Origin: a virus
Taxonomy: Duplodnaviria > Heunggongvirae > Uroviricota > Caudoviricetes
Length of the DNA stretch: 64,000 nucleotides
Virus record (IMG/VR): IMGVR_UViG_3300045988_145635
Direction: 5' to 3' (one strand)
Shown here: piece after piece, positions 3,004 through 29,361 of the stretch
Numbering within the stretch: position 1 is the stretch's first letter
Layout: the number at the start of each line of letters is the position of its first letter
The notes under the pieces: generated by a model
Seen by the model: the letters and a program-made list of their open reading frames with translations, nothing else
What the model was told of the DNA's origin: nothing
The model's database searches: none
Translations under genes and position numbers: made by a program

Positions 3004-3498
3004 ATGGCACGTCAAACCTATTTCACTTCTGCAACTAAACGTCCTCGTTCACTACGTCAAATTTTGGCCGAATTATTTAGCGGTCGTGTTCTGTCACGTC
3101 TTGATGAACTAGAGACTGCCGTTCGGTTGCTGAATGAACGTTTAGATAAGCAAGCGTCAGTTGTTGCGAACGTGGGGGCGATTGTTACCTCTGGTTCTTC
3201 ACGCGAAGCGAAAAGTACACGGCCTTTAGTGAAGGAGAAAAACAACAAGGACAGTTCGAATGGAAAATTTTCAAAGAAAGAGGCTGAAACCAATGGCCTA
3301 CGTTCTCATTATAGTTTCACTGGCGACGGTAGCCGTTCCAGCCGGCCAGAGCCTTTTGATGCCGGGTTCATCCATCACCACACCTCCGTCGACGACAATT
3401 ACCACCACTCCAGTAGAGCGTCCTGTCACTCTGGATGGGATGACGGTGGATGCGATACCTCAAGTTCATCCAGTTACTCAGGATCATGCTGTGACTAA
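3004..3498 (+). CDS. Hypothetical protein (Ser-rich low-complexity C-terminus)
   Basis: ORF with GGATGGAG upstream; an overlapping alternative frame encodes a hydrophobic peptide so the true frame is uncertain. Confidence 0.3.
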   Translation: MARQTYFTSATKRPRSLRQILAELFSGRVLSRLDELETAVRLLNERLDKQASVVANVGAIVTSGSSREAKSTRPLVKEKNNKDSSNGKFSKKEAETNGLRSHYSFTGDGSRSSRPEPFDAGFIHHHTSVDDNYHHSSRASCHSGWDDGGCDTSSSSSYSGSCCD

Positions 3499-3507
3499 GG
3501 CGGTTGT

Positions 3508-3705
3508 ATGAACTGGTTTTCAAATCACTTTGGAAAAACTTGGCTGGCGATTCTGGCTTTCATAGCTCTCATGGCCGCCGGTTGGGTATCGAACATTGTA
3601 AAACTCGTTTGCTCTGGTGATCTCCAGTTTCAGGCTGGTATGACCTTGGCTCGTGTTGTTGGGATTTTTGTTTTTCCAGTCGGTTCGGTACTTGGTTATT
3701 TCTGA
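3508..3705 (+). CDS. Small membrane protein (2 predicted TM segments)
   Basis: 65 aa, hydrophobic stretches LAILAFIALMAAGWV and VVGIFVFPVGSVLGYF. Confidence 0.4.
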   Translation: MNWFSNHFGKTWLAILAFIALMAAGWVSNIVKLVCSGDLQFQAGMTLARVVGIFVFPVGSVLGYF

Positions 3706-3798
3706 CGGTTGTTAGTGCATATGCATTGACCGTCTTTTCGTAAGCAATTCATGTAACTAGAAAACAACTTGTTTTAACAAATAACAAAAGGAAAGCAC

Positions 3799-4224
3799 AT
3801 GTTAGGTTTATTCAAAAAGAAAACTCGTAAAGCTGTTATCGAGGTCAAAAAAATGGAGAACCGAGATGCGGTTGAAGCCACCGTGTGGGGCGCGTACATG
3901 ATCTCCTATGCCGATGGCACATGCGACGCAAAGGAAATTTCCATTCTTGAGAAAACAATTGCAGCTCTGCCTGCGTTTTCTCCGTTTGCTGGTGAGATTG
4001 CCCAAATGAGCGCCAATATCCGTGCTCAATACGAAGCCTCACCGCGCCGCGCTAATGCCCAGGCTTTACGTGAGCTGGCTGATGTGGCCGGGACTAATGA
4101 TGCAGTAGATGTACTGTGTCTGTGCCTTGATATTGCCGACCAAGACGGTATTGGCGAACAAGAAGAGCTGGCCCTGAAAAAGATCGCACAGGCGCTTCAG
4201 TTGTCACTGGATGCTTATCTCTAA
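3799..4224 (+). CDS. TerB-like domain protein
   Basis: Two DG-x-x-D/E-x-x-E-x-x-x-L segments (YADGTCDAKEISILEKTIAAL; DIADQDGIGEQEELALKKIAQAL) as in TerB-family proteins; operator motif A upstream. Confidence 0.55.
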   Translation: MLGLFKKKTRKAVIEVKKMENRDAVEATVWGAYMISYADGTCDAKEISILEKTIAALPAFSPFAGEIAQMSANIRAQYEASPRRANAQALRELADVAGTNDAVDVLCLCLDIADQDGIGEQEELALKKIAQALQLSLDAYL

Positions 4225-13767: not shown

Positions 13768-14868
13768 TCACACTGCGCGGAATGCGATTTCGCCAGGTAT
13801 TACTTCACCTTGCCAATACATTTGGGCAGCAACGCGATCTGCGAGGTCACGATAAATAGCCGTAAATTCGCTATCTGGACGACTAATAACGGTTGGTGTT
13901 CCGTTATCCAGATCTTCACGAAGAGAGATATGAAGTGGCATTTGGCCTAACAACTGCGTGTTGTATTTCTCGGCCAGTTTCTGTGCGCCACCGGTGCCAA
14001 AAATTGGCTCGTGATGACCGCAGTTACTGCAAATATGCACACTCATGTTTTCGACGATACCCAGTACCGGCACTTCGACTTTTTCGAACATCACAATGCC
14101 TTTCTTCGCATCGATCAGCGCGATGTCTTGCGGCGTAGTTACCACAACCGCACCAGTTACAGGAATGTTCTGCGCCAGCGTCAACTGAATATCACCAGTG
14201 CCCGGCGGCATATCGAGAACGAGATAGTCCAGATCAGGCCATAGAGTTTCCTGCAACATCTGCATCAGCGCCTTGCTGGCCATCGGTCCACGCCACACCA
14301 TTGCATTGTCGTCGGTGACCAGATAACCAATAGAGTTGGTTGCCAGGCCATGAGACATGATAGGTGCCATGTGAGTACCGTCCGGTGAGGTTGGACGTTG
14401 GTTTTCCGCGCCCAGCATGGTTGGAATTGATGGACCATAGATATCGGCATCCAAAATACCAACTTTCGCACCTTCAGCAGCCAACGCCAGTGCCAGATTT
14501 ACCGCCGTGGAGGATTTACCTACGCCGCCCTTGCCTGAGCTGACGGCGATAATGTTCTTAACGCCATTAATGCCTGGTTGGTTTTTGACGCGCTTAAGCG
14601 TGGCAATGTTGTACGACAGCTTCCAGTCAATAGCCTTTGCGCCAGTGATACGGAGCAGATCACCACTACATTGCTCTTTCAGGTCTTCAAAAGGCTTATT
14701 CCACACGAAAGGCATGATTAGTTCGACATGCAGTGTGTCATCCATCAACGCAACATGGTGTAACGCTTTAAGCGTAGTCAGGTTGTGTTTCAGGGTTGGG
14801 TGCTGAAAATTAGCCAGCGTACCGGCTACCATTGCTCTCAGGGCATCCGGCGATTTGGACTCGCTCAT
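13768..14868 (-). CDS. apbC: Fe-S cluster carrier ATPase ApbC (Mrp)
   Basis: 366 aa; Walker A SSGKGGVGKSS, CxxC (CSNCGH); near-identical over its length to enterobacterial Mrp as I recall it. Confidence 0.93.
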   Translation of the reverse strand: MSESKSPDALRAMVAGTLANFQHPTLKHNLTTLKALHHVALMDDTLHVELIMPFVWNKPFEDLKEQCSGDLLRITGAKAIDWKLSYNIATLKRVKNQPGINGVKNIIAVSSGKGGVGKSSTAVNLALALAAEGAKVGILDADIYGPSIPTMLGAENQRPTSPDGTHMAPIMSHGLATNSIGYLVTDDNAMVWRGPMASKALMQMLQETLWPDLDYLVLDMPPGTGDIQLTLAQNIPVTGAVVVTTPQDIALIDAKKGIVMFEKVEVPVLGIVENMSVHICSNCGHHEPIFGTGGAQKLAEKYNTQLLGQMPLHISLREDLDNGTPTVISRPDSEFTAIYRDLADRVAAQMYWQGEVIPGEIAFRAV

Positions 14869-15025
14869 CCCGTCTCCTTTATTTTAATTTGCGCAATTGT
14901 CGCCTTGTAGTGTACTCCAGCTACGACATTTAATCATTTATGAGAAATGCTGTTATCACATGGCAGACATAAGGCCATTTTGTTACTATCAAGCCCCTTT
15001 TCACTACAAAGAAGTAATGCCTACT

Positions 15026-17059
15026 ATGACCCAAGTCGCGAAGAAAATTCTGGTGACGTGCGCGCTGCCGTACGCTAACGGCTCAATCCACCTCGGCCAT
15101 ATGCTGGAGCACATCCAGGCTGATGTCTGGGTTCGTTACCAGCGAATGCGCGGCCACGAGGTTAATTTCATCTGTGCCGACGATGCCCACGGTACGCCGA
15201 TCATGCTGAAAGCGCAGCAGCTTGGTATCACACCGGAGCAGATGATTGGCGAAATGAGTCAGGAACACCAGACTGATTTCGCAGGCTTTAACATCAGCTA
15301 TGACAACTATCACTCGACGCACAGCGAAGAGAACCGTCAGTTGTCTGAGCTTATCTATACTCGCCTGAAAGAGAACGGTTTTATTAAAAACCGCACTATC
15401 TCTCAGTTGTACGACCCGGAAAAAGGCATGTTCCTGCCGGATCGTTTTGTAAAAGGCACCTGCCCGAAATGTAAAGCGCCAGATCAATACGGCGATAACT
15501 GTGAAGTCTGCGGCGCAACATATAGCCCGACTGAATTGATCGAGCCGAAATCGGTGGTTTCTGGCGCTACCCCGGTAATGCGTGATTCCGAACACTTCTT
15601 CTTTGATCTGCCTTCTTTCAGCGAAATGTTGCAGGCATGGACCCGCAGCGGCGCGTTGCAGGAGCAGGTGGCGAACAAAATGCAGGAATGGTTTGAATCC
15701 GGCCTGCAACAGTGGGATATCTCCCGCGATGCGCCTTACTTCGGTTTTGAAATTCCGGACGCGCCGGGCAAATATTTCTACGTCTGGCTGGACGCGCCGA
15801 TTGGCTACATGGGTTCCTTCAAGAATCTGTGCGACAAGCGCGGCGATACCACCAGCTTCGATGAATACTGGAAGAAAGACTCCACCGCCGAGCTGTACCA
15901 CTTCATCGGTAAAGATATTGTTTACTTCCACAGCCTGTTCTGGCCTGCCATGCTGGAAGGCAGCAACTTCCGCAAGCCGACCAACCTGTTTGTTCACGGC
16001 TATGTGACAGTGAACGGCGCGAAGATGTCCAAGTCTCGCGGTACCTTTATTAAAGCCAGCACCTGGCTGAATCATTTTGACGCCGACAGCCTGCGTTACT
16101 ACTACACTGCGAAACTCTCTTCGCGCATTGATGATATCGATCTCAACCTGGAGGATTTCGTTCAGCGCGTGAATGCCGATATCGTGAACAAAGTGGTTAA
16201 CCTGGCCTCCCGTAATGCAGGCTTTATCAACAAGCGTTTTGACGGCGTGCTGGCAAGCGAACTGGCTGACCCGCAACTGTACAAAACCTTTACTGATGCC
16301 GCTGAAGTGATTGGCGAAGCATGGGAAAGCCGCGAATTTGGTAAAGCTATCCGTGAAATCATGGCATTGGCTGACCTGGCTAACCGCTATGTCGATGAAC
16401 AGGCTCCGTGGGTGGTGGCGAAGCAGGAAGGGCGCGATGCCGATCTGCAGGCGATTTGCTCTATGGGCATTAACCTGTTCCGCGTGCTGATGACGTACCT
16501 GAAACCGGTACTGCCGAAACTGACTGAACGTGCAGAAGCATTCCTGAATACAGAACTGACCTGGGATGGTATCCAGCAACCGCTGCTGGGCCATAAAGTG
16601 AATCCGTTCAAGGCACTGTATAACCGTATCGATATGAAACAGGTGGAAGCACTGGTGGAAGCATCCAAAGAAGAAGTGAAAGCCACAGCCGCACCGGTAA
16701 CTGGCCCACTGGCTGACGACCCGATTCAGGAAACCATCACCTTTGACGACTTCGCCAAAGTTGACCTGCGTGTGGCGCTGATTGAAAACGCGGAGTTTGT
16801 TGAAGGCTCTGACAAACTGCTGCGTCTGACACTGGATCTCGGTGGGGAAAAGCGTAATGTCTTCTCAGGCATCCGTTCTGCTTATCCCGACCCACAGGCA
16901 TTGATTGGTCGTCACACCATTATGGTGGCTAACCTGGCTCCGCGTAAAATGCGCTTCGGTATCTCCGAAGGCATGGTGATGGCTGCTGGCCCCGGCGGGA
17001 AAGATATCTTCCTGTTAAGCCCGGATGCTGGTGCTAAACCTGGCCACCAGGTTAAGTAA
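15026..17059 (+). CDS. metG: Methionine--tRNA ligase
   Basis: HIGH motif (ANGSIHLGH), KMSKS motif, zinc knuckles CPKC/CEVC, C-terminal tRNA-binding domain; start chosen at [11 protein letters not shown] (the ORF-track start at 14897 is an upstream extension). Confidence 0.96.
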
Positions 17060-17079
17060 TTAAACAACCTCTGTTCGCA

Positions 17080-17106
17080 ATGCCCGGCAACACGCTGGGC
17101 ATTTTC
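17080..17106 (+). terminator. metG terminator
   Basis: ATGCCC-loop-GGGCAT hairpin followed by TTTT. Confidence 0.5.
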
Positions 17107-17142
17107 ATATAGACACAATCCCTTCTGATTTACGCATACCCT

Positions 17143-17210
17143 AAAACAATTTGTTTTCTGCCTTTTGTTAATTGAGATAATAAGCCACATAAGAAAACAA
17201 ATTGTTTCGG
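17143..17210 (+). promoter_or_regulatory. Paired operator motif A sites (AAAACAATTTGTTTT and AAGAAAACAAATTGTTT) flanking a GATAAT -10-like hexamer
   Basis: Two palindromes 48 bp apart immediately upstream of the 17221 start. Confidence 0.55.
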
Positions 17211-17220
17211 AGTGGTTGAA

Positions 17221-17520
17221 ATGTTGAACATTACCCAAGCCTACCAGGTGGCATTGATCAGTTCATCTCATACATCAGAGGAAGATGCTCGTCGATTCAT
17301 GATCGCAAGCAATGAGCTGGATTGGGTTTCGCAAATTGACGGCGGTTGTATTGTCCACGCCGGGTTACAGGATGATGTCTGGAAAGACGACTTGCGTCGA
17401 TATGGTATATCCGAAGGCGCGATTGCTAACATTCAGAAAGTACTTGATGTAGGCTTTGACTCTGTACATTTTGATTGTGGTGCGCCGGTCGTTGAAGGGC
17501 TTGAGTGCTGGAACTGGTAA
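17221..17520 (+). CDS. Hypothetical protein
   Basis: ATG with GGAGTGG spacer; first cassette of right arm. Confidence 0.5.
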   Translation: MLNITQAYQVALISSSHTSEEDARRFMIASNELDWVSQIDGGCIVHAGLQDDVWKDDLRRYGISEGAIANIQKVLDVGFDSVHFDCGAPVVEGLECWNW

Positions 17521-17565
17521 CAGATATTAAAGCATTGGTAGTTTGTTTTTAGGATTATCAAAGAA

Positions 17566-18300
17566 ATGAAAAAGTTGAAAAGTTTAGAAATCCCTGGGAC
17601 TGGTTATAAATTCTTTATGGACAACGCGGAGTGTGCACCTAACGCGTTGGAAAAAATACAAAGTCTTATCAACAGCCTTACTGAAGAAGCGAAAGAACTG
17701 AAGAGCGAGGCGACAAAGGACAATACAGCTAAAATCCAATGCTTAAATCTCGTTTCTTATTGTTTATATCAAGTGTCCAAGACACTGATTAAAGGCAATA
17801 TCTATTACGACGATGAAGACACCTCGACACCTGAAGAAAAAGATAGCGATGAAGAACTCTATGAAGATATCTCTACTAGTGCGGGTCACGCTGCCTTCGA
17901 TGCTATGGGTAAATCGTCAGGCATCAGATCATTTGTTGAACAGAACAATTCGACAATAATGATTGAGTACTGTGAACAAACAAGCTCCAAGGCCATACAT
18001 GTTCTTCACGATGTTGCTGCAGGGGTTCGCTGTGAGGCTGAAGCGGTCAGAAAAGATGTATTTGGTGCAGACAGTAATACCGTGAAAGCGTTCATCAACA
18101 GTGCTCTGCTAAATTCTTACTCAAACCTTATCGTCAATGCGGCACTATGCGCAAATTCTGGTGAAGAACACATTGTCATAACCGAAACCAAATATGAGCA
18201 TCAACAGTCACCAACCATAGAAGAGGTAACTGCATTGGCTATCAAACAGGCGAGTGAAATTAGTGATGAAATTCTCTCTCTGCTAAACAAAACTAAGTAA
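17566..18300 (+). CDS. Hypothetical protein
   Basis: 244-aa ORF; no motif recognised. Confidence 0.5.
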   Translation: MKKLKSLEIPGTGYKFFMDNAECAPNALEKIQSLINSLTEEAKELKSEATKDNTAKIQCLNLVSYCLYQVSKTLIKGNIYYDDEDTSTPEEKDSDEELYEDISTSAGHAAFDAMGKSSGIRSFVEQNNSTIMIEYCEQTSSKAIHVLHDVAAGVRCEAEAVRKDVFGADSNTVKAFINSALLNSYSNLIVNAALCANSGEEHIVITETKYEHQQSPTIEEVTALAIKQASEISDEILSLLNKTK

Positions 18301-18379
18301 AACATTGATAATGGCGGTCACAATTTGATTCTTTTCTATAAGAATCCGTTGATCGCCACTACTCCCCTTCCATGCCTGG

Positions 18380-19200
18380 AATCACATCCTTAAATATCAA
18401 TAGGTTACAGTTGTTTATACCAATAAGAAAACAACTGAATAACAGATCAACGAAACATCAACGCTTTCACCCGATTTGGTCTAAAAAATTGACGTTTTCA
18501 CACATCACTGCTTATACCCGTAATTCTACGCAGCAGACAGCGCCACAGCGTCCAATTTTCACCACAGACGACCCAACACACTACCAACAAAAACACACGC
18601 TCAAAATCGTTCCCGTTGCGTTACATAACCATATAAACAACTTATTTTCAGGAATAACAAAACAACTAAATAACACATATGCCATTCCCAAAACAACCAA
18701 CCTCTTTATGGCAGGCTACCGAAAAGACCCACCTCTTCTTCCCAGGCTACCGGACAACCAACCTAACTTTCACAGGCAATCCGAAAACATTCATACGCGC
18801 GATACCCACGACACGCCATTACCCAAACAACGAAGAAACACCTGAACCACTGAAACCCCAACGAAGCCTGTTACCGCAAGGATTCTCTCAATCCCAAAAG
18901 ACACGAAACATAACAATCACGGGAAACGCCATTACCCAATACACGAATAACTACAAAAGCCCTTCACACACTCCAGACAAACAACTCAAACACAATAACG
19001 AAAGGAATCGCCCACCTGCCATTACTCCATACACGGAGAAGAACAATCACCAAAACGACGAGAACACCCCATAGAAGAACCACCGCAAAACGAACGAAAC
19101 CACATACACCGACAGAGAGAACAACACACCCAATTCACCAACAGAAATAGTCGCCGTATAGAACGTTCTGGAAGGAGTGAGCATTAACGCCTATAGAGAG
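18380..19200 (+). other. ORF-poor, strongly strand-asymmetric A+C-rich tract (G- and T-poor on the plus strand)
   Basis: ~0.8 kb dominated by A and C; contains short repeated CAGGCTACCG-like and CCACCTCTT motifs; six-frame ORFs here translate to low-complexity sequence. Confidence 0.55.
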
Positions 19201-19360
19201 GTTGAAACAGATAAAACACGAAGAAAACACAACATGTATAGCGAAGAAGCCAGGTATGTATAAGTGGGGAGGGAAGGAGGGGTGTCGCCTCCTTTTTCGT
19301 ATTTATTCAACTCCTGATTTTATCCCCCGTAACACCCCTACGGTCAGCCTTCGGTCCATA

Positions 19361-22014: not shown

Positions 22015-22497
22015 ATGAATTTTATCGCTACTGTAAACGCACCCGCACATGGCAATATCGCTGTAACGTTCTCTGACATTGAAAAACGAGTACTTGGTGC
22101 ATGGCGCGACAATGAGACGGTAGAACTGTCAGCACAAGAAAAATGCATTATTGCACGCGACATCATTGGCAATCGTCGTTACTCGCGGGTATTTGAGAAA
22201 GCGTATGTGGTAAATTCTGGATTCGGAACGTTCGTCTTTCCGGTGCGCTCCGGGCGATTCTGCCAGTCCAAGTTGATTGAGTTCGCTACGCAGATTTCTG
22301 TCTGGATTAAAACTCAATCGTCGTTCAAATTTTCCGACGATGAAGCAGTATCGCAGGGGATGCGGATCGCCAACAATGCAATTAAATGCAAAAACATTAC
22401 GTATACCGCTGGCGTTGATACATGGAAACTGTTTTGCGCTAACTTTATGCTGAATGTATACGCAAGCAACCGCATCCACATCCTTGATGGCGTGTAA
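22015..22497 (+). CDS. Hypothetical protein
   Basis: Operator motif A at 21977-21997; terminator hairpin at 22505-22528. Confidence 0.5.
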   Translation: MNFIATVNAPAHGNIAVTFSDIEKRVLGAWRDNETVELSAQEKCIIARDIIGNRRYSRVFEKAYVVNSGFGTFVFPVRSGRFCQSKLIEFATQISVWIKTQSSFKFSDDEAVSQGMRIANNAIKCKNITYTAGVDTWKLFCANFMLNVYASNRIHILDGV

Positions 22498-22626: not shown

Positions 22627-23114
22627 ATTCGCCTTTGTGTAGAAAAAAACATCGGGAAGCTGGTGGAATCCAACCAGCGGTTGTCGGACAGGTGAGCGGG
22701 GAAAATTATGATGACTTTCGTCGCCTGAGACATCCAGATTTCTTTCGTAGCATAATCACATACGTGATTAAGTGGTGTGATTATGTGAAAAATCACGCGC
22801 ACATAATACGCGAGCGGATACGGAACAAAACAAAATGCCGATCCGCGCCGACAAATAAACGCGGATCATAAAGCAAGACTAAAAGCCAATGATTAACCAT
22901 ACACCATAACGCAATATAACGCGTTTTAAGCGCGTTAATGCGCTAAGTAATGGGTATATACTGGTAAGGATATAAAAGCTCGTCTGTGGCGTTATTTTGG
23001 CGCTTATTTTTATGTTGTTGGAGTGAGTCAAAGACAATAAAAAAAGCGCCATCATTGGCGCGTTATGGTGGAAGTATTGGAAACGAAAAAAGCGCCCATA
23101 GTGGGCGCTCGATT

Positions 23115-23351
23115 TTATTTATGTAAACTGATTTCAAATCCCATTTCTACAAACGCTTTTAACATTAAAAATATATCAGCGTCATTCACGTCTGCTTTTT
23201 TTCGCTCCTGGTCGCTCAATAAGTCAATTTTGCGCGTCGTTTCATCTATAAGCTCGACTGCGCGCCCAGCGTAACCAGCGATCCCAGCGATGCGATTAAC
23301 ATAATATTCGTTATGGACGTTAACGCCAGCGATAAGAACAAACATGATCAA
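23115..23351 (-). CDS. Hypothetical small protein
   Basis: ORF bracketed by GCGCCCATAGTGGGCGC hairpins. Confidence 0.4.
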   Translation of the reverse strand: MIMFVLIAGVNVHNEYYVNRIAGIAGYAGRAVELIDETTRKIDLLSDQERKKADVNDADIFLMLKAFVEMGFEISLHK

Positions 23352-23365
23352 GCTCCTTAAAAAAA

Positions 23366-23569
23366 TTAAATAGAATTTTGAAGTTTTCCGATTAATGCGC
23401 TTAAACGTAAGTATTCACGTTTGCGCTTGCAATCTCGCTTGCTGTTAAGCAAATCAGAAAACGTAAAATTTAATTGGTCGCGTTGCGCGATCAAATCATC
23501 GATTAATTCCAGTTTATAAGCGCGATACTTTGCGCGATATTCCGCGCGGATCTTGTCATAGCTGACCAT
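23366..23569 (-). CDS. Hypothetical small basic protein
   Basis: 67-aa ORF, AT-rich. Confidence 0.4.
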   Translation of the reverse strand: MVSYDKIRAEYRAKYRAYKLELIDDLIAQRDQLNFTFSDLLNSKRDCKRKREYLRLSALIGKLQNSI

Positions 23570-23616
23570 TTTAAAGCTCCTTTAAAGCGCCCATAGTGGG
23601 CGCTTGATTCCATTAA

Positions 23617-24267
23617 TTACGCTTTGAAAGCATCAGCTAGATAATTGTAGAAATCATTCTTGATAAAGCGATATTGCTGCGTACCAGCTTTCGCGCTCCC
23701 AGCTCCTTTGACTTTTTCAACAAGTCCAAGACGTTCGCAAAGATTGATCAACTGGTTGGCTTGAGTATAGCCAGCGTCCAATTTAATCTCGCACGCTTTT
23801 TTCGCTTCATTCATTAAATCGAAAACAGCGCCATTGGTGAACGTGTCGATCTCGTCGTTAATCATATCGATTAAAGCGAATACACGAGATCCTGACATAT
23901 CAGCGACGGAATAAACACATTTACCAGCTTTAATGGATTTAACCAGATAAACCAGTTTTTCCAGTGAATAACTATTAGTCATTGCATCACGGAAAAATAC
24001 TTCTGGCGCTTGTTTACTTGCTTTGATCGCATAGTAGAAAACAGAGCATAATTTTTCGTCTTCTACTGCGTTTACGACGTTGTTGATGAAGTAAGCAAGT
24101 TTAGTGGTAGCAGCTTGCATATTTGCTTTGTCTGCTTTGGTGTGCGTACCATTTTTATAATGTTCATTATATGTTTGAGTTGCCAGATCTGCTTTTTCGC
24201 GCAGCTCGTCGGATACAATGGATGCAGCTTCAATGATGGATTTTTTAGAAATGATAATGTTAGCCAT
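23617..24267 (-). CDS. Hypothetical protein
   Basis: 216-aa ORF with its own upstream AT-rich leader. Confidence 0.5.
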   Translation of the reverse strand: MANIIISKKSIIEAASIVSDELREKADLATQTYNEHYKNGTHTKADKANMQAATTKLAYFINNVVNAVEDEKLCSVFYYAIKASKQAPEVFFRDAMTNSYSLEKLVYLVKSIKAGKCVYSVADMSGSRVFALIDMINDEIDTFTNGAVFDLMNEAKKACEIKLDAGYTQANQLINLCERLGLVEKVKGAGSAKAGTQQYRFIKNDFYNYLADAFKA

Positions 24268-24548
24268 GATTTCAATCCTTAGTATAAAATTTAATTGTCG
24301 TTAGCGATTTCGCTTTCGATGAGTCCAATTATCGATATGAGAAAAAAGATTGCAAGCGTTTTTTAATTTTTTTTTGCAGGGCGAAAGTCCTAGAAATAAA
24401 TACGAGATCGTCGAAGGTGTTCCCTAAATAAATAATCGATTCCGGCTTTAGACCTTATATATTTATACGGGGTAGAATTGAAAGAGTATAAAATGAATGG
24501 CGTGTAAAATAATAACCGGACTTAGCCGGTTATTACCCTTATAGGAAT

Positions 24549-24848
24549 TTACATCTTTTTTGCATAGTTCCTGATTTCTTTTATTATATATTCCTGAAAA
24601 CGCTCCGAGTTTTCGCATTTGTCTTTTGAAGACTCATCAAGTCCCAACTTGCATCCCGCAACGATCAGTCCATCTTGATATGCAGCGCCTAAAGCCATGC
24701 TTAGGTCTAACATGCACAAATCGTAGTCTTCCGCCTTTGAACACAACTCTGTAGAGACACGTTGCACTCGTTCAATGCTATTTTCTTGAGAAAATGCGGA
24801 AGAGCTAAAAATGAAAGTTAAGAATGTGAATGCTGCTACAGTTTTCAT
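24549..24848 (-). CDS. Small secreted Cys-containing protein (signal peptide)
   Basis: MKTVAAFTFLTFIFSSSAFSQE signal-like N-terminus; 4 Cys; terminator hairpin downstream (24505-24528). Confidence 0.5.
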   Translation of the reverse strand: MKTVAAFTFLTFIFSSSAFSQENSIERVQRVSTELCSKAEDYDLCMLDLSMALGAAYQDGLIVAGCKLGLDESSKDKCENSERFQEYIIKEIRNYAKKM

Positions 24849-24864
24849 ATCAATATCCTAAAAC

Positions 24865-24916
24865 GGTAAAATTCGGTCAACCAAATCGAAGAAAACAAGA
24901 ATTTTTCTGCCGTCTT
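24865..24916 (-). repeat. Promoter/leader direct repeat, copy 1 (also carries a remnant 3' gene end)
   Basis: ~52 bp near-identical to 25231-25282. Confidence 0.6.
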
Positions 24917-24923
24917 CATACAT

Positions 24924-25220
24924 TTATCGGACTGACTCTACAGCCTTACGATTGGTGTCAAAAAGCGCATCAACGAACAGCAATGAAGAGTTGTTCAATT
25001 CACATGGTTCATAATTTTCCACCTGTTCACATAGTTGAGCGGTCTTACCTATGTTTATCCCTAGTTTTACTGCTGCTGAAAGTTGAAACATGCAAACTGG
25101 AATATTCTGAGACGTTGAGCATACGTCATGCATCAGCGACTTAATAATTGCAATATCATCCTTTGCATTGGCTGAAATTGAGTAAACTAAAAATAATGAT
25201 GTCAATAGTATCGATTTCAT
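24924..25220 (-). CDS. Small secreted Cys-containing protein (signal peptide), same architecture as 24549-24848
   Basis: MKSILLTSLFLVYSISANA signal-like N-terminus; 4-5 Cys. Confidence 0.5.
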   Translation of the reverse strand: MKSILLTSLFLVYSISANAKDDIAIIKSLMHDVCSTSQNIPVCMFQLSAAVKLGINIGKTAQLCEQVENYEPCELNNSSLLFVDALFDTNRKAVESVR

Positions 25221-25223
25221 AAC

Positions 25224-25748
25224 TCAAAAAGGTAAAATTCGTTCAACCCAATCGAAGAAAACAAGAATTTTTCTGCCGTCTTTCAACTTAAGTGTGACTA
25301 GGCAGGCATCAACGCCATCTGACGTTCCCTCAATTTCGCGGCCGTCTGCCATGTAGACCCTTATAGATTGGCCGTTTTGATAAGCCTTGCGACATATCTT
25401 AAAAAAATCACGACGTGATGGCTGGTTGTCTACATAGTCAGGGTGTATTGTTAGTCTCCCTTTGAAATCGTAATCAATGCCATCAATTACGCCTGATTCA
25501 ATTGTGCTAATGCGCTCAAGTGGGAGCCTTATACGATTTTCTTTGTCAAATGGAGTTGGACAAAGGTCAACTTTGTTACGAGATGACATGAGACCATAAA
25601 CGTACATGCAAAACACTTGGCCGTCTTCGAGAGTGACTCTTACAGGAAATTTAGCCCTCCGCCAGAAGAGCAAGGTGCGTTCAGCATGTTCGTAGTCTCG
25701 CGGCCATACTTCAGCCGGTATGCCGTAGGTGATATCTTTCGTCGTCAT
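25224..25748 (-). CDS. Hypothetical protein
   Basis: Start placed at the internal Met so the gene abuts the upstream lipoprotein gene. Confidence 0.5.
   Translation of the reverse strand: MTTKDITYGIPAEVWPRDYEHAERTLLFWRRAKFPVRVTLEDGQVFCMYVYGLMSSRNKVDLCPTPFDKENRIRLPLERISTIESGVIDGIDYDFKGRLTIHPDYVDNQPSRRDFFKICRKAYQNGQSIRVYMADGREIEGTSDGVDACLVTLKLKDGRKILVFFDWVERILPF
25231..25282 (-). repeat. Promoter/leader direct repeat, copy 2 (overlaps the 3' end of gene 25224-25748)
   Basis: ~52 bp near-identical to 24865-24916. Confidence 0.6.
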
Positions 25749-25752
25749 ATCA

Positions 25753-26172
25753 TTATAAAGTGGTTGGCAATATGTCCATTGTACCATCCCAGGTAGTGAA
25801 AACCCGATATGTTTTCGAATCGCCCTGCTTTAGCTTTATTTCTCGTTCCATCCTGGAGGGGTTAAATGCGCAAAGACCTGAACTTTCAATTGATGTCCCA
25901 ACGATCCACTCTCCTTCGTTAAGGTAGAAAGTTGCTTTTTCACCAGGTTCTAGCTTTGCAGCCGTTTCTCCATTGATGAAAATGGAAGCGTTACATGCAG
26001 AACCAACCAGCCCTTTGTCTCGAACTATTGTTAGACTAGACTCATGTGGTGTTTGATATTTAAATATTCTGCTTTGAGGTGCATCCTTTGCCTTTGAAAT
26101 AGATATAGACGAAGACGAACACCCAATTAGTGACGTGGTTAGCATTAGAATCATTAAGTTTTTTGCTTTCAT
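25753..26172 (-). CDS. Lipoprotein (candidate superinfection-exclusion type)
   Basis: Signal peptide with lipobox LIGC; function inferred only from being a prophage-encoded lipoprotein. Confidence 0.5.
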   Translation of the reverse strand: MKAKNLMILMLTTSLIGCSSSSISISKAKDAPQSRIFKYQTPHESSLTIVRDKGLVGSACNASIFINGETAAKLEPGEKATFYLNEGEWIVGTSIESSGLCAFNPSRMEREIKLKQGDSKTYRVFTTWDGTMDILPTTL

Positions 26173-26199
26173 ATTTGATTGACTATGATTAGTGAGTGG

Positions 26200-26748
26200 C
26201 TACATGCTATTCTGAGTTCTGTTGTAAATATCTTTTAAGAGGTCATCTCTTTTTATGTTTTTACAGACTTTGTCGAAACTTAATTCACCTGATGATATGC
26301 AGTTGTTGTATTTTTCGATAAAATTTTTTAATGCCAGATGATTTTTGAAAAGAAAAGAAAAACCATAGGGTGACGTGCTATCTCTTATCCATTTCCGAGC
26401 ACTGGGATAAGTGTATAAATTTGAATGCAACTCCAATTTTCCAGGGGCCACGCCATCACAGGAGTCCATAATAGCGAACATTTTTGATATATCAAAAGGA
26501 TAAAAGACTACTCCGCAATTTGTCCTGGTGCCTTCAATATCTTTCACGTATATATAGTGTTCATAACGATCTTTACGTGAAGTCTTTAACCTGTATTGTA
26601 TTAGTTTGTGCTCTTCTTTTTGAGAAGAAGTTAGGTGTCTAGGGTTTTCTAAGCAAGATTTCTGTTTATTTTTTTTATGATAAAAATCCACACAGTCCTT
26701 TATTTCCTTTGCACTTAAAAATCTCTTATCAAAAGGTAAGTGACCCAT
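26200..26748 (-). CDS. Hypothetical protein (AT-rich)
   Basis: 182-aa ORF; no motif recognised. Confidence 0.45.
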   Translation of the reverse strand: MGHLPFDKRFLSAKEIKDCVDFYHKKNKQKSCLENPRHLTSSQKEEHKLIQYRLKTSRKDRYEHYIYVKDIEGTRTNCGVVFYPFDISKMFAIMDSCDGVAPGKLELHSNLYTYPSARKWIRDSTSPYGFSFLFKNHLALKNFIEKYNNCISSGELSFDKVCKNIKRDDLLKDIYNRTQNSM

Positions 26749-26888
26749 TCATGCCTCCGGTTCTAAACATAGGTAAGCCTACAAATATCGTTCAGCCAAT
26801 CAAGATCTTTTTTCAGCCGGAGGTATATGTTTCAAAAAACGTGACGAATGTCACATGCAGGTGCTCTCATACACCTGCATGTAGACTA

Positions 26889-27455
26889 TTAATCATTCAA
26901 TAATCTATATTTTCTTTTGATTAAATCTTCACCTTTTTTGGTGAACACAAAACCAAATTGCGATTTTTTGTTCAGCCTAAGGACTCTGTTATCCAACGCA
27001 TCGGTTGATGGAATCAATGTTTGATCATCTATCCAATTTAGTAGCGTAAGAAAGTTCAGCAGCCTCAACGTTGTTGTGCGAAGCTCTTTCGATATATTTT
27101 CAATGCTGGCAATTCGTCTTTCTTTTTTCTCAGGTGGTACAGATAATTGTTCTTGAGGTTTCGTGGATAGATAATCAATTTCGTTTGCAGCATCGAATGA
27201 TATATGTGGCGTAATTTTGCTAAAAAAGCCTTTCGCTGACTCACTTGATAATAAACCAGACCTATTCATATCGTTTGTTATTCTGTACAGGAGTGGACTG
27301 TGTTTCATTTCAGGATAACGTTGATAAAAGTTAAGCAATTCAAAAGCAGCATTAGCGCCAACAAGAAAATCAGAAGGATCGCTGACTTTCCAGAAAGAAT
27401 GATTTTTCTTAGCGCCAGTGGTGTCAACAAATGATAATTCTTTTAACCAACTCAT
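26889..27455 (-). CDS. Hypothetical protein (AT-rich)
   Basis: Start at the Met with AAGGAG RBS. Confidence 0.45.
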   Translation of the reverse strand: MSWLKELSFVDTTGAKKNHSFWKVSDPSDFLVGANAAFELLNFYQRYPEMKHSPLLYRITNDMNRSGLLSSESAKGFFSKITPHISFDAANEIDYLSTKPQEQLSVPPEKKERRIASIENISKELRTTTLRLLNFLTLLNWIDDQTLIPSTDALDNRVLRLNKKSQFGFVFTKKGEDLIKRKYRLLND

Positions 27456-27520
27456 GATGTGCTCCTTTCTAACAAGTGAGCACATCATAGAATTAGTAGA
27501 TAGGGGGTAAATATGAAATG

Positions 27521-27799
27521 TTACGGCAACCTGCTCAGTATTTCCTCTAAATCTTTTTTTGTCATATTGGAGTTTTCATAGATGCGCATGATTTTCTCAC
27601 GCGTCTTAGCGGAAACCCCAACAGCAGATGTGACTTTGTCAAATTCAGCCATAGTCATCGTCTCCAGAATGGCATTGATAACTTCAGCCTTAGACATCTT
27701 AATTTTTTTCTCTTTGAGTTTTATTTGAAATTTTCCAAGTTTTTCATTGGCCTTATCAGACAATGCCACTTGGCAATAAGTTGTTTTTTTTTCGCTCAT
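27521..27799 (-). CDS. Small Lys-rich protein, translationally coupled to the helicase
   Basis: ATG 2 nt after the helicase stop. Confidence 0.45.
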   Translation of the reverse strand: MSEKKTTYCQVALSDKANEKLGKFQIKLKEKKIKMSKAEVINAILETMTMAEFDKVTSAVGVSAKTREKIMRIYENSNMTKKDLEEILSRLP

Positions 27800-27801
27800 A
27801 A

Positions 27802-29361
27802 CTAATCTCGTTTCAGAATTCCAAAATCGAATGCGCCATCAATAGGCAATACACCTTCCGCAAAGCCAGGTGTGGTGTCGATGATGTGTTTTCGCTCATA
27901 AGAGTGAGACAACAGGTATTTGTTGCTAGTGTCAATGAAATCAGTGATAAAACACACGTTTGCCTGATTCTTCTTGGCTCGTAAGCCACGACCGACACGC
28001 TGTCTCATTTCAACTTCTGCTTTCCCACCACCAGCAAGAATGACCGCACCAACGCTTGGCACATCAACACCAACATCCAGAATAGTCGAGCCTATTAAAA
28101 CATCTATTTCACCAGACGCTAAACTGTTCAGCTTTGCTTGCCTTGTCGACTGGTTCGATTCCCCATAAATGAAGTCAACTCTAAGGCCGGACTCTTTCAT
28201 CATTTCCATCAGGATTTGCCCGTGGCGTTTAAGACGAACCAGAGTCATACAATTGAGAGAATGTTGCTTATAGAGCAATGCTTCGCGAACAATGGCCTCA
28301 TTACGTCCCAAATTATACACGATCCCCAACTGATAAGCCTTTTGGTAGGCAGTGCTCATACCTACTCTAAAATTGAGGTGTTTGTTGGCAAGTTCTGCCT
28401 TGATTCTGGCCTCGTCCGGCTTGTAGGCAACTTTATGATAAAGGAAGTATGGTTTTGCCAGAATGCCTCGATCAATCAGGTACTTTTCTGTGACTTTAAT
28501 TTCAATTCGCCCGGCCACAGCCATCAGACGCATGTTGGCTTCTGTAGAATCCTTCATGAACGGCGTGGCCGTAAGCGCCAGACGATAGTCTGCGTTCACA
28601 CATAATCTGGCAATGTCATAGAAATTAGAGCCTGAAGACTCATGCGCTTCTTCCAGAATAAGCAGAGACACACTTGAAAGGAAGCGTTTCACTAGCTCCC
28701 GACGTTTGAGGTGGTAGCTCTTTTTATCTGGTGTTGCATCGCGTGGTGGTTCTTCAAGGAAACTTGCCAGAGTTTGAACTGTAGCGACGTTGATATGTCG
28801 TGATACCTGGAACTCACCCGAGCCAATGACTCCAACCTTTTGGCCCTTTAACCACGGTTCGCCATTTTCGGCGCGGTAGTCGATGGATCTCTGGAAGTTT
28901 TCGGCCATTTGAAACATCAGAACAGAGCGGGTTGTTAAAAATAATGTCATTCGACCGATACGTGCAGCTGCTTTGCAGGCAACATTAGATTTCCCGCCAC
29001 CAGTAGCGATCTGCGCAATCATCATTCCCTCTCGAACCAGTGTTTCCACAGTCTGATCCTGATACGCATAATCAGGATTGTATGGGAATGGGTTAACCGC
29101 CGGATTTGGTTTTCCAAGCGCCGGGGCTTTGTCTTTGCGGATATGAACACATTTGATGCCCGCCTTGTTCAAGTTCGCCGCTACAGGCTTGGCAAAGCCA
29201 GCAGGGAACGAGTTTTTACTCCAGTTGAACATCGTGCTTGTGCCCTTCCAGTCGCCAGTCTCGACTTCGTAGCTCAACATCTGTTGCACCAGTTGCTTTA
29301 CCTTGTCATCTGCGCCAGAAATAAGCGCATTAACTGCGTTAGATACAATCCGAACAGTCAT
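27802..29361 (-). CDS. Superfamily-2 helicase (DEAD/DEAH-box-like)
   Basis: Motif I ATGGGKS, motif II LILEEAH, motif III LTATP, arginine-finger-like QRVGRGLR. Confidence 0.7.
   Translation of the reverse strand: MTVRIVSNAVNALISGADDKVKQLVQQMLSYEVETGDWKGTSTMFNWSKNSFPAGFAKPVAANLNKAGIKCVHIRKDKAPALGKPNPAVNPFPYNPDYAYQDQTVETLVREGMMIAQIATGGGKSNVACKAAARIGRMTLFLTTRSVLMFQMAENFQRSIDYRAENGEPWLKGQKVGVIGSGEFQVSRHINVATVQTLASFLEEPPRDATPDKKSYHLKRRELVKRFLSSVSLLILEEAHESSGSNFYDIARLCVNADYRLALTATPFMKDSTEANMRLMAVAGRIEIKVTEKYLIDRGILAKPYFLYHKVAYKPDEARIKAELANKHLNFRVGMSTAYQKAYQLGIVYNLGRNEAIVREALLYKQHSLNCMTLVRLKRHGQILMEMMKESGLRVDFIYGESNQSTRQAKLNSLASGEIDVLIGSTILDVGVDVPSVGAVILAGGGKAEVEMRQRVGRGLRAKKNQANVCFITDFIDTSNKYLLSHSYERKHIIDTTPGFAEGVLPIDGAFDFGILKRD

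Follow-up and report, generated by a model that had tools for sequence, protein, structure and literature searches.

What does a compact block of AT-rich genes directly downstream of a helicase gene contribute to the element that carries it, and how did it come together? The block in question occupies positions 23115-27799 of a 64,000-nucleotide stretch (the window hereafter) from the IMG/VR virus record IMGVR_UViG_3300045988_145635 (Caudoviricetes), and its genes, named g1 to g10 from low to high coordinates, all lie on the minus strand. The original prediction, made from the letters of the window, had taken it for a moron or defence hotspot inside a prophage. Our comparison with related loci shows that the island consists of a frame of three genes, namely g10, a homologue of the flagellar repressor gene fljA, and g3, with three recombination slots that hold alternative cassettes. 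The window carries a rare stacked version, in which alternatives stand side by side (g9+g8+g7, g5+g4 and g2+g1). From our point of view, the best explanation is that the island represents the helicase-downstream accessory module of an SSU5-like phage-plasmid, with this frame, these slots and the functions that we infer for them (probability about 0.55), and that it is most likely a lysogeny-expressed module for regulation and envelope conversion. Its anatomy and its recombinational origin are well supported.

With the helicase as an anchor, 86 related loci were collected (80 from IMG/VR and six from GTDB genomes, including Yersinia pestis, Kluyvera and Buttiauxella), to which three annotated records were added. 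Together with the window, these 89 loci gave 76 complete islands, in which the presence and order of genes were taken from tblastn searches with the window proteins and from a clustering of all open reading frames (ORFs). The genes g10, fljA and g3 occur in 76/76 islands and in fixed order, even where the helicase is only 71-72% identical; islands of the latter kind consist of just g10, fljA, one small secreted protein and g3, with spacers of 64 nucleotides (nt). The other seven genes (g1, g2, g4, g5, g7, g8 and g9) are each present in only 6 to 41 of the 76 islands and are exchanged for at least six further cassette families, with about 35 architectures overall. The original prediction had set variable accessory genes against core genes conserved in synteny, and both kinds are found here, since seven genes are variable but g10, fljA and g3 are core.

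Slot A, between g10 and fljA, holds g7 alone, g9, g8 or one of the families F12 (197 residues, exported), F17 (a 262-residue lipoprotein on the opposite strand, which equals CYRAN_115), F19, F20 (exported) and F23. Its commonest cargo is g7 (31/76 islands), and g9 always stands first after g10 where it is present (23/76). Slot B, from the fljA stop to a conserved hairpin, is empty in 43 of the 76 islands, and contains g5 in 19, g4 in 7, F39 (another secreted Cys protein) in 3, a g7-type lipoprotein in 2 and g5 plus g4 in 2. Slot C, after g3, is bounded by copies of a GCGCCC hairpin and holds g2 (26 islands), nothing (24), g2 and g1 (15), g1 (9) or two copies of g1 (2). The combination of g9, g8 and g7 with g5 and g4 was found only in this window and in the plasmid pSTEC388_1. 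The features of the island and its borders, in the order of transcription, are as follows:

27802..29361, minus strand: DEAD/DEAH (UvsW-like) helicase, upstream island boundary, first gene of predicted unit 1
27521..27799, minus strand: g10, 92 amino acids (aa), core frame gene; 76/76 islands; phrog_1466; ratio of non-synonymous to synonymous substitution rates (dN/dS) 0.07
26889..27455, minus strand: g9, 188 aa, slot A cassette, cytoplasmic; 23/76 islands; phrog_13473
26832..26886, minus strand: tandem hairpins with T-run, predicted intrinsic terminator after g9 and end of unit 1; -24.7 kcal/mol, z = -5.5
26200..26748, minus strand: g8, 182 aa, slot A cassette, cytoplasmic, first gene of predicted unit 2; 6/76 islands
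25753..26172, minus strand: g7, 139-aa lipoprotein, slot A cassette; lipobox LIGC; phrog_890 'lipoprotein'
25224..25748, minus strand: fljA-like gene, 174 aa, core frame gene; PF03614 over its full length; 76/76 islands
24924..25220, minus strand: g5, 98-aa exported four-Cys protein, slot B allele 1; phrog_9536; export by the signal-peptide rule; alone in slot B in 19/76 islands
24853..24916, minus strand: pseudo-copy of the last ~20 fljA codons; 91% identical to 25219-25282 (direct repeat D1)
24549..24848, minus strand: g4, 99-aa exported four-Cys protein, slot B allele 2; phrog_27673; export by the signal-peptide rule; alone in slot B in 7/76 islands
24511..24534, minus strand: conserved hairpin that closes slot B, end of predicted unit 2; from RNA folding and conservation in leaders
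24268..24510, minus strand: conserved predicted promoter and leader of g3; conserved in 70 distinct leaders
23617..24267, minus strand: g3, 216 aa, core frame gene, first gene of predicted unit 3; 76/76 islands
23587..23603, minus strand: GCGCCC hairpin copy 2, between g3 and g2; from RNA folding
23366..23569, minus strand: g2, 67 aa, slot C cassette; phrog_6145; 41/76 islands
23115..23345, minus strand: g1, 76 aa, slot C cassette; phrog_1585; 26/76 islands
23092..23108, minus strand: GCGCCC hairpin copy 1 with T-run, predicted terminator of unit 3 and island end; from RNA folding
22015..22497, plus strand: conserved 160-aa gene, downstream island boundary (anchor)

The origin of the stacked arrangement can be followed in slot B. 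The gene g5 is flanked by a 64-nt direct repeat (24853-24916 and 25219-25282, 91% identical), of which the second copy forms the 3' end of fljA. Read along the coding strand, fljA stops with TGA, GTT comes next, and the ATG of g5 begins 3 nt past this stop; the g5 stop is followed by TAAATGTAT, by a copy of the last ~20 fljA codons that ends in TAG, and by GATATTGAT in front of the ATG of g4. Among the g5-only islands, the end of fljA reads TGA-GTT-ATG in 13/21 and TAA-GTT-ATG in another five, and g5 continues into TAAAT(C/G)TATAAGGGTAATAACCGG, which is the conserved hairpin. Islands with g4 alone show TAG-GATATTGAT-(A/G)TG at the end of fljA, and where slot B is empty the fljA stop leads straight into the conserved hairpin (~41/44). 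The junctions in relatives with only g4, only g5 or neither gene show that g4 and g5 occupy one and the same site as alternatives. The pseudo-copy of the fljA 3' end between them consequently means that two alleles of slot B were joined: the tandem arose through fusion of the 3' flank of g5 to a point 60 nt inside fljA in a copy that carried g4.

Slot C works similarly. The GCGCCCAnnnTGGGCGC hairpin, which bounds the g2 and g1 cassettes in relatives, recurs there as a unit, in the orders g3-hairpin-g2-hairpin (22 islands), g3-hairpin-g1-hairpin (8) and g3-hairpin-hairpin (11). The order of the window, g3-hairpin-g2-g1-hairpin, is found in seven islands, a version with two g1 cassettes, each followed by the hairpin (g3-hairpin-g1-hairpin-g1-hairpin), also recurs, and in the window itself a 34-nt repeat containing the GCGCCC hairpin brackets g2 and g1.

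The source element is an SSU5-like phage-plasmid of the SSU5 supergroup (SSU5, pHCM2, pMT1 and pLF82/Cyrano). An 8-kb stretch around the island is 93-96% identical, at 73-78% query cover, to the Escherichia phages CMS-2020a, PhiR41_1 and Cyrano, 80% identical over 47% cover to Salmonella phage SSU5, and 97.3% identical over 100% cover to E. coli pSTEC388_1. It matches 789 plasmid records (Klebsiella, Escherichia, Enterobacter, Yersinia, Salmonella and others), 755 of which are typed as non-mobilizable. In complete E. coli genomes, island matches were found in 241 of 5,426 (4.4%), only six of which cover at least 80% of the island. The location inside an integrated prophage that had been assumed is thus to be corrected to a plasmid-borne phage, as all 252 matching places in these genomes lie on plasmids. 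In the 97%-identical record pSTEC388_1 (L001), g5 is unannotated and the coding sequence at the g4 position (3463-3849, corresponding to 24463-24849 of the window) has 128 instead of 99 codons for amino acids; public annotation of the island is therefore incomplete.

As had been noted before, the minus-strand block is AT-rich, with a GC content of 0.382 (window as a whole 0.463, neighbouring helicase 0.469); the ORF list, however, gives ten genes instead of the nine originally counted. Per-gene values span 0.335 (g8) to 0.444 (fljA), and since the core genes have a GC content as low as that of the cassettes, low GC is no mark of recent acquisition here. All ten gene families are under purifying selection across the relatives (median dN/dS 0.07-0.33), and the ten ORFs are hence real genes. 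The start of g10 lies 2 nt past the helicase stop, the ATG of g1 at 23345 is preceded by AAGGAG, and for g9, whose ORF reaches 27488, an AAAGGAG ribosome-binding site favours the ATG at 27455. The predicted lipoprotein is present in g7 (lipobox LIGC with Cys18), and so are the two similar signal-peptide Cys proteins, with cysteines at positions 36, 45, 66 and 78 in g4 and 34, 43, 64 and 73 in g5, although the two are only 19-26% identical, varying with the alignment. The larger proteins of 180-216 aa had been described as motif-less, which applies to the extent that the nine genes other than fljA have no Pfam, NCBIfam, PADLOC or PDB-sequence assignment (this includes g10, without a Pfam match, and g9, without a Pfam, PDB or PADLOC match), though all of them have PHROG families. 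It does not apply to the ORF at 25224-25787, which encodes a full-length FljA (Flag1_repress) homologue, so that the statement that function cannot be read from the sequence was wrong for this gene.

The true start of this ORF is at 25748, giving a protein of 174 aa that matches PF03614 with 268 bits against a cut-off of 24 (E = 4.2e-80) over profile positions 1-170 of 170. It is 36% identical from end to end to the flagellin-linked FljA of pLG26p2 (178 aa), both proteins having the motifs AE[VI]WPRDY and FDWV.RI, and its gene shows a dN/dS of 0.12. Plasmid records with the gene number 831 (full length in 822; 341 from Klebsiella and 62 from Yersinia), and in the phage collection 12 of 13 records belong to the SSU5 group, the other one being a short partial match in a 4.6-kb Salmonella phage fragment. 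Three deeply diverged plasmid lineages of Klebsiella carry intact genes for 176-178 aa, with synonymous sites saturated between lineages and an omega of 0.115 for one close pair.

The characterised relatives (Salmonella FljA, E. coli FlkB and pBSSB1 FljA-z66) block translation of fliC mRNA (PMC2652032 and PMC3378880, citing Bonifield & Hughes 2003 and Yamamoto & Kutsukake 2006), and their genes sit right after an alternative flagellin gene, as in fljBA and flkAB (PMC2652032, PMC3378880). This canonical flagellin-FljA arrangement was also seen in one locus (L090). Compared with FljA of Salmonella fljBA, FlkB of E. coli H3/H47 and FljA-z66 of the linear plasmid pBSSB1, the SSU5-type protein has the same PF03614 domain over its full length and a similar size, and mobile-element-borne versions such as that of pBSSB1 are known in the family. 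It differs from flagellin-linked FljA in its sequence (35-36% identity), in being encoded by a core gene of a phage-plasmid lineage and in having no adjoining flagellin gene: we could not find a flagellin gene in the 64-kb window (best tblastn E = 0.48) or in the 89 related loci, and the neighbours of fljA are a lipoprotein gene upstream and a secreted-protein gene downstream. It further differs in being kept in non-flagellate hosts and in one carrier strain being motile, namely E. coli LF82, which carries Cyrano and is highly motile with long FliC-dependent filaments (PMC10809763). Since non-flagellate hosts keep the gene intact, LF82 is motile and a flagellin partner is absent, it is unlikely that host flagellin is silenced constitutively, and what fljA is conserved for probably does not depend on host flagella.

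Two candidate targets of the protein were considered in the window and rejected. An operator resembling the fliC leader was sought with blastn-short and the K-12 leader, whose best match (E = 0.24) is what chance would give, and the initiation region of g3, as a counterpart to that of fliC, ranked only 51st among 2,232 ATG sites. In the literature search, no paper was found that links FljA to SSU5-like elements or describes this island.

The division of the island into transcription units can be approached through its hairpins, the fold stabilities of which were compared with those of shuffled sequences. The hairpins named in the original prediction exist and are absent from shuffled sequence, but their positions had to be shifted by up to ~8 bases: a GCGCCCATAGTGGGCGC hairpin lies at 23092-23108 and again at 23587-23603, and a AATAACCGG..CCGGTTATT hairpin at 24511-24534. 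The copy at 23092-23108 is stable (-15.5 kcal/mol, z = -4.6) and followed by a T-run; that at 23587-23603 has no T-run and folds barely better than shuffles (z = -1.9). The hairpin at 24511-24534 (-15.3 kcal/mol, z = -2.7) is at least 80% conserved across 70 distinct leaders and thus a conserved element of the frame, and not, as had been proposed for 24505-24528, the own terminator of g4. For the tandem hairpins at 26832-26886, 0/200 shuffles were as stable, and hairpin terminators are in excess overall (13 found, compared to 5.9 +/- 3.0 in shuffles).

On this basis, three units appear to be present, predicted as helicase-g10-g9 with the terminator behind g9, as g8-g7-fljA-g5-g4 up to the conserved hairpin at 24511-24534, and as g3-g2-g1 with a promoter of its own and the terminator at 23092-23108. 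Within the second unit the successive genes are separated by gaps of 27, 4, 3 and 75 nt. An AT-rich leader of 280 nt precedes g3 and includes a predicted -35 box TTGCAA and -10 box GATAAT at 24355-24328. Two copies of TATTTATTT(nn)AGG(n)AC, conserved across 70 distinct leaders, lie directly ahead of these boxes; the pair may represent an operator, for which g10 and g3 itself would be candidate regulators. A search of the island against Rfam at E <= 1 gave two sub-threshold chance matches and no known RNA family.

Expression data for close homologues come from the published re-analysis of E. coli LF82 carrying Cyrano (PMC9928086, Table 1 and S1 Table), with levels given for stationary lysogeny broth (LB). 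The most highly expressed island gene is CYRAN_117, which is 100% identical to g10 and lies 12-fold above the prophage background, followed by the helicase gene CYRAN_118 (~4.8-fold), the F17 lipoprotein gene CYRAN_115 (~3-fold) and the fljA homologue CYRAN_114 (86% identical, ~1.9-fold), with the g9 homologue CYRAN_116 at about background and the g3 and g1 homologues CYRAN_113 and CYRAN_112 at the detection floor (PMC9928086). CYRAN_114 rises from a log2 value of 4.2 in stationary LB to 7-8 in four other conditions (PMC9928086 S1 Table). Only the g10 homologue lies above the 5-fold level that serves as the transcriptomic criterion for morons in Cyrano.

What the cassettes encode is dominated by export. 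By simple rules, a signal peptide or a lipobox is found in seven of 13 accessory families (g7, g5, g4, F12, F17, F20 and F39). Pfam searches with F12, F17, F19, F20, F23, F39 and divergent g7, g9 and g10 proteins gave nothing at the gathering threshold, nor did NCBIfam, and g7 itself has weak matches to DUF2846 and BiPBP_C that both stay below the Pfam threshold. The families of g4 and g5 are tiny, a profile search having added only three g5-like proteins; relatives of g4 bear the precomputed tag PF26829. A T4 Spackle-like or other known fold for g4 and g5 was considered and is unsupported, as the g4 model has a predicted local distance difference test (pLDDT) score of only 56.5 and a Foldseek search with this low-confidence model against the PDB reached a best E of 3.6, with no PDB sequence matches either. 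Against PADLOC-DB v2, the island gave only marginal matches (SspC, E = 0.007, and PDC-M47B, E = 0.027, both at 12 bits). A region of ~50 residues with the motif 'LLDPD' is common to F20 (L078, 1645-2004) and F17 (L002, 1301-2101, CYRAN_115; hhalign 72%), the two proteins being otherwise different.

Three slot A families, g8, F19 and F23, form one superfamily with a shared core of ~70 residues (hhalign 86% for g8-F19, 93% for F19-F23 and 64% for g8-F23, unrelated controls giving ~0.1%), and each lies directly upstream of a gene for an exported protein (g7, F20 or F12). The g8 family itself is rare, with only three cluster representatives among 1.84 billion proteins in an exhaustive phmmer search, and a g8 profile search found nothing among PDB sequences. 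One of the three representatives, from Klebsiella oxytoca, joins the g8 domain to an HNH nuclease (PF01844, 23.2 bits with a cut-off of 21.4) in a protein of 348 aa; its gene is situated at 6001-7047 of L093-L095 in slot A of an SSU5-like element, ahead of a 196-aa ORF, behind which lies the FljA-like gene. This fusion is the sole hint of defence; the g8 protein of the window has no nuclease domain. For g3, a confident helical model with a long helical N-terminal half and weak but recurrent matches to helix-turn-helix and winged helix-turn-helix folds suggest that the C-terminal half may be a winged helix-turn-helix domain. The N-terminus of g10 (TTYCQVALSDKANEKLGKF...) resembles by eye the strand-helix start of a ribbon-helix-helix protein; no tool result backs this fold.

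Taken together, this leads to the following proposal. The g8-g7-fljA-g5-g4 unit would probably be on while the element is carried as a plasmid, so that the envelope would receive a lipoprotein plus two disulfide proteins of the periplasm, and the cytoplasm an FljA-type protein. The latter would, judging by homology and with good likelihood, bind the 5' leader of an mRNA and stop its translation. Its conserved target could, at nearly even odds, be one of the element's own transcripts or some other RNA that does not encode flagellin; host fliC, which we rank below such an RNA, is doubtful and conceivable only as a conditional target. As a tentative suggestion, the exported cassettes may change the surface of the cell, for which superinfection exclusion or the masking of receptors would be the most plausible purpose. 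With similar reservation, g3-g2-g1 could be a separately controlled unit, probably with lytic or early functions, and g3 a DNA-binding protein.

Several points weigh against this explanation. Everything beyond the anatomy rests on homology or genomic context. The promoters are consensus matches only, with 24 found compared to 16.6 +/- 4.4 in shuffles, and the search for an RNA target in the window came up empty for both the fliC leader and the g3 initiation region. Cyrano, from which the expression data stem, has no g4, g5, g7 or g8. The signal-peptide rule is crude and gave a false positive on the amphipathic N-terminus of g3, the AlphaFold2 model of g4, built from a 9-sequence alignment, shows four helices at low confidence (pLDDT 56.5), and the exported proteins match no PHROG family annotated with exclusion (E <= 0.01), the best being 'lipoprotein' or 'unknown function'. 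Finally, this reading does not account for the low GC of the core genes.

A first rival explanation starts from the known role of the family: the FljA homologue would block translation of host fliC, and the lysogen would lose its flagella because the element brings no replacement flagellin, which would guard it from flagellotropic phages and flagellin-directed immunity, while the co-transcribed exported proteins would remodel the envelope further. The full-length, high-scoring PF03614 membership and the motifs kept with flagellin-linked FljA are consistent with such a shut-off. So is the fact that repressors of the FljA type act in trans, which is described for Salmonella, for E. coli (FlkB) and for plasmid-borne copies. 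The Cyrano homologue is moreover transcribed in the lysogen, rising ~8-15-fold outside stationary LB, including the 'MB' samples (presumably macrophage-internalised bacteria), and many hosts are flagellated (E. coli, Salmonella, Enterobacter, Citrobacter and Cronobacter). We nevertheless regard it as unlikely, given that LF82 with its 86%-identical copy is highly motile and forms long FliC filaments, that plasmids of non-flagellate Klebsiella and of Y. pestis keep an intact gene under purifying selection, and that a protein with only 35-36% identity to flagellin-linked FljA is never encoded alongside a flagellin gene. An improbable reading is that the block mainly serves a lytic or early programme, such as host takeover or as a replication accessory, with no role in the carried state. 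The position directly downstream of, and predicted partial co-transcription with, the replication helicase would fit, as would the silence of the g3 and g1 homologues in the lysogen and the conserved, regulated-looking promoter of g3; however, the lysogen contains transcripts of the g10, fljA and F17 homologues, and the export of lipoproteins and periplasmic proteins is generally typical of lysogenic conversion and not of early lytic functions.

There is little chance, in our opinion, that the whole block is a recently acquired, autonomously expressed hotspot of mainly anti-phage function. The part of this original proposal that stands is the variability, with seven variable genes in about 35 architectures; also in its favour are low GC, an excess of hairpin terminators, the g8-HNH fusion in the same slot of the K. 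oxytoca relative and the recurrence of g8-superfamily genes beside exported proteins. It does not agree with three of ten genes being universal and syntenic, with core genes that are equally AT-rich, with the lack of a convincing PADLOC match and of a nuclease or other effector domain in stand-alone g8, or with g9, g3 and g1 homologues that do not rise above background in the lysogen. A narrower version, to which we give just as small a chance, would see slot A as a place for two-gene exclusion or defence cassettes, in which a sensor or nucleic-acid-binding domain of the g8 superfamily acts with the exported protein encoded downstream and the HNH fusion unites the same logic in one polypeptide. 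The homology of g8, F19 and F23 with clean hhalign controls, the exported protein that follows each of them and the g8::HNH fusion in the same slot, with a 196-aa ORF next to it, argue for it. However, g7 mostly occurs without g8 (g7 alone in 26/76 islands), the partner proteins are mutually unrelated and, because they are soluble exported proteins or lipoproteins, sit in another compartment than g8, the domain has no PDB or Pfam relatives, and the fusion is a single example. We therefore retain the accessory module of an SSU5-like phage-plasmid as the best explanation.

Moron or accessory hotspots of temperate phages are well known, for example lambda bor and lom or the P2/P4 defence hotspots. 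The island resembles them in that unrelated small genes of lower GC with hairpin terminators are exchanged among close relatives at fixed positions between conserved genes, but differs in that its three slots are interleaved with three universal low-GC genes, in that PADLOC reports no defence system and in that exported cargo is dominant. Superinfection-exclusion proteins of the envelope include the lipoproteins Llp of T5 and Cor of phi80 and N15 and the periplasmic Spackle of T4, and the island likewise encodes small lipoprotein and periplasmic proteins from a resident phage. Mature g4 and g5, with ~75-80 helical residues and paired cysteines, are like Spackle by general description only (the g4 model being of low confidence), and g7, with its 139 aa, exceeds both Llp and Cor in size.

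Sensor-domain-HNH fusions of the Type IV restriction kind are known as well, and the relative P0115, annotated as 'HNH endonuclease', similarly combines a g8-type N-terminal domain with an HNH domain; the g8 protein of the window, in contrast, has no nuclease, and the g8 domain shows no detectable relation to known modification-reading domains. Small promoter-less ORFs, each bounded by a repeated imperfect palindrome and stacked in variable number, are also reminiscent of integron arrays, but the hairpin is a 17-nt GC-rich stem of the terminator type and not attC, and the dissectable junction is an allele-joining scar inside fljA. Integron-like cassette capture, raised by the repeated hairpins, was set aside, as no integrase is seen nearby and the sole dissectable junction is the scar of two alleles; no integrase-like ORF turned up in the ORF list for 20-31 kb, where no search aimed at attC or integrase was made.

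Elsewhere in the window, a patch of 52% GC contains a full-length methionyl-tRNA synthetase gene (metG, 14897-17059, plus strand, with the KMSKS motif) and an apbC fragment, with flanks extending over 14000-19300. This 5.3-kb block is found in 378 plasmids, 170 of which cover at least 80% of it; they are mostly E. coli SSU5-like plasmids including pLF82, with metG and apbC annotated, and the patch looks like a captured chromosomal fragment. Within the same block, ~780 bp on the plus strand (~18370-19150) are strongly rich in C and A (GC skew -0.29, AT skew +0.24); tandem repeats are absent, and the ORFs are all of low complexity.

SSU5-like phage-plasmids are common in clinical Enterobacteriaceae, where they are usually called cryptic, and include pMT1 of Y. 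pestis and plasmids of S. Typhi, Shigella and Klebsiella. For these elements, an unannotated AT-rich block has now become a map in which three genes are universal and three slots serve exchange; with its junction sequences known, the island is easy to type in different genomes and to engineer. What the slots carry, about half of it exported families, is an obvious place to seek surface conversion and superinfection exclusion. The most interesting point of the island is, in our view, the universal FljA-family gene that has no flagellin partner and is kept even in hosts without flagella, as it poses the simple question of what these elements regulate in their hosts or what FljA-type proteins bind. 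One could speculate, although the whole of it is rather unlikely to apply jointly, that SSU5-type FljA is an orphan RNA-binding translational repressor that serves the purposes of the element (the choice between carried and lytic state, the g3 unit or a conditional shut-off of host mRNA), and that the g8-superfamily domain and its exported neighbours constitute a new small exclusion or defence module. If the former were true, the repressors behind flagellar phase variation in Salmonella and E. coli would form one specialised branch of a regulator family, and its other branch would be a core gene in a lineage of phage-plasmids that is very widespread (pHCM2, pMT1 and pLF82).

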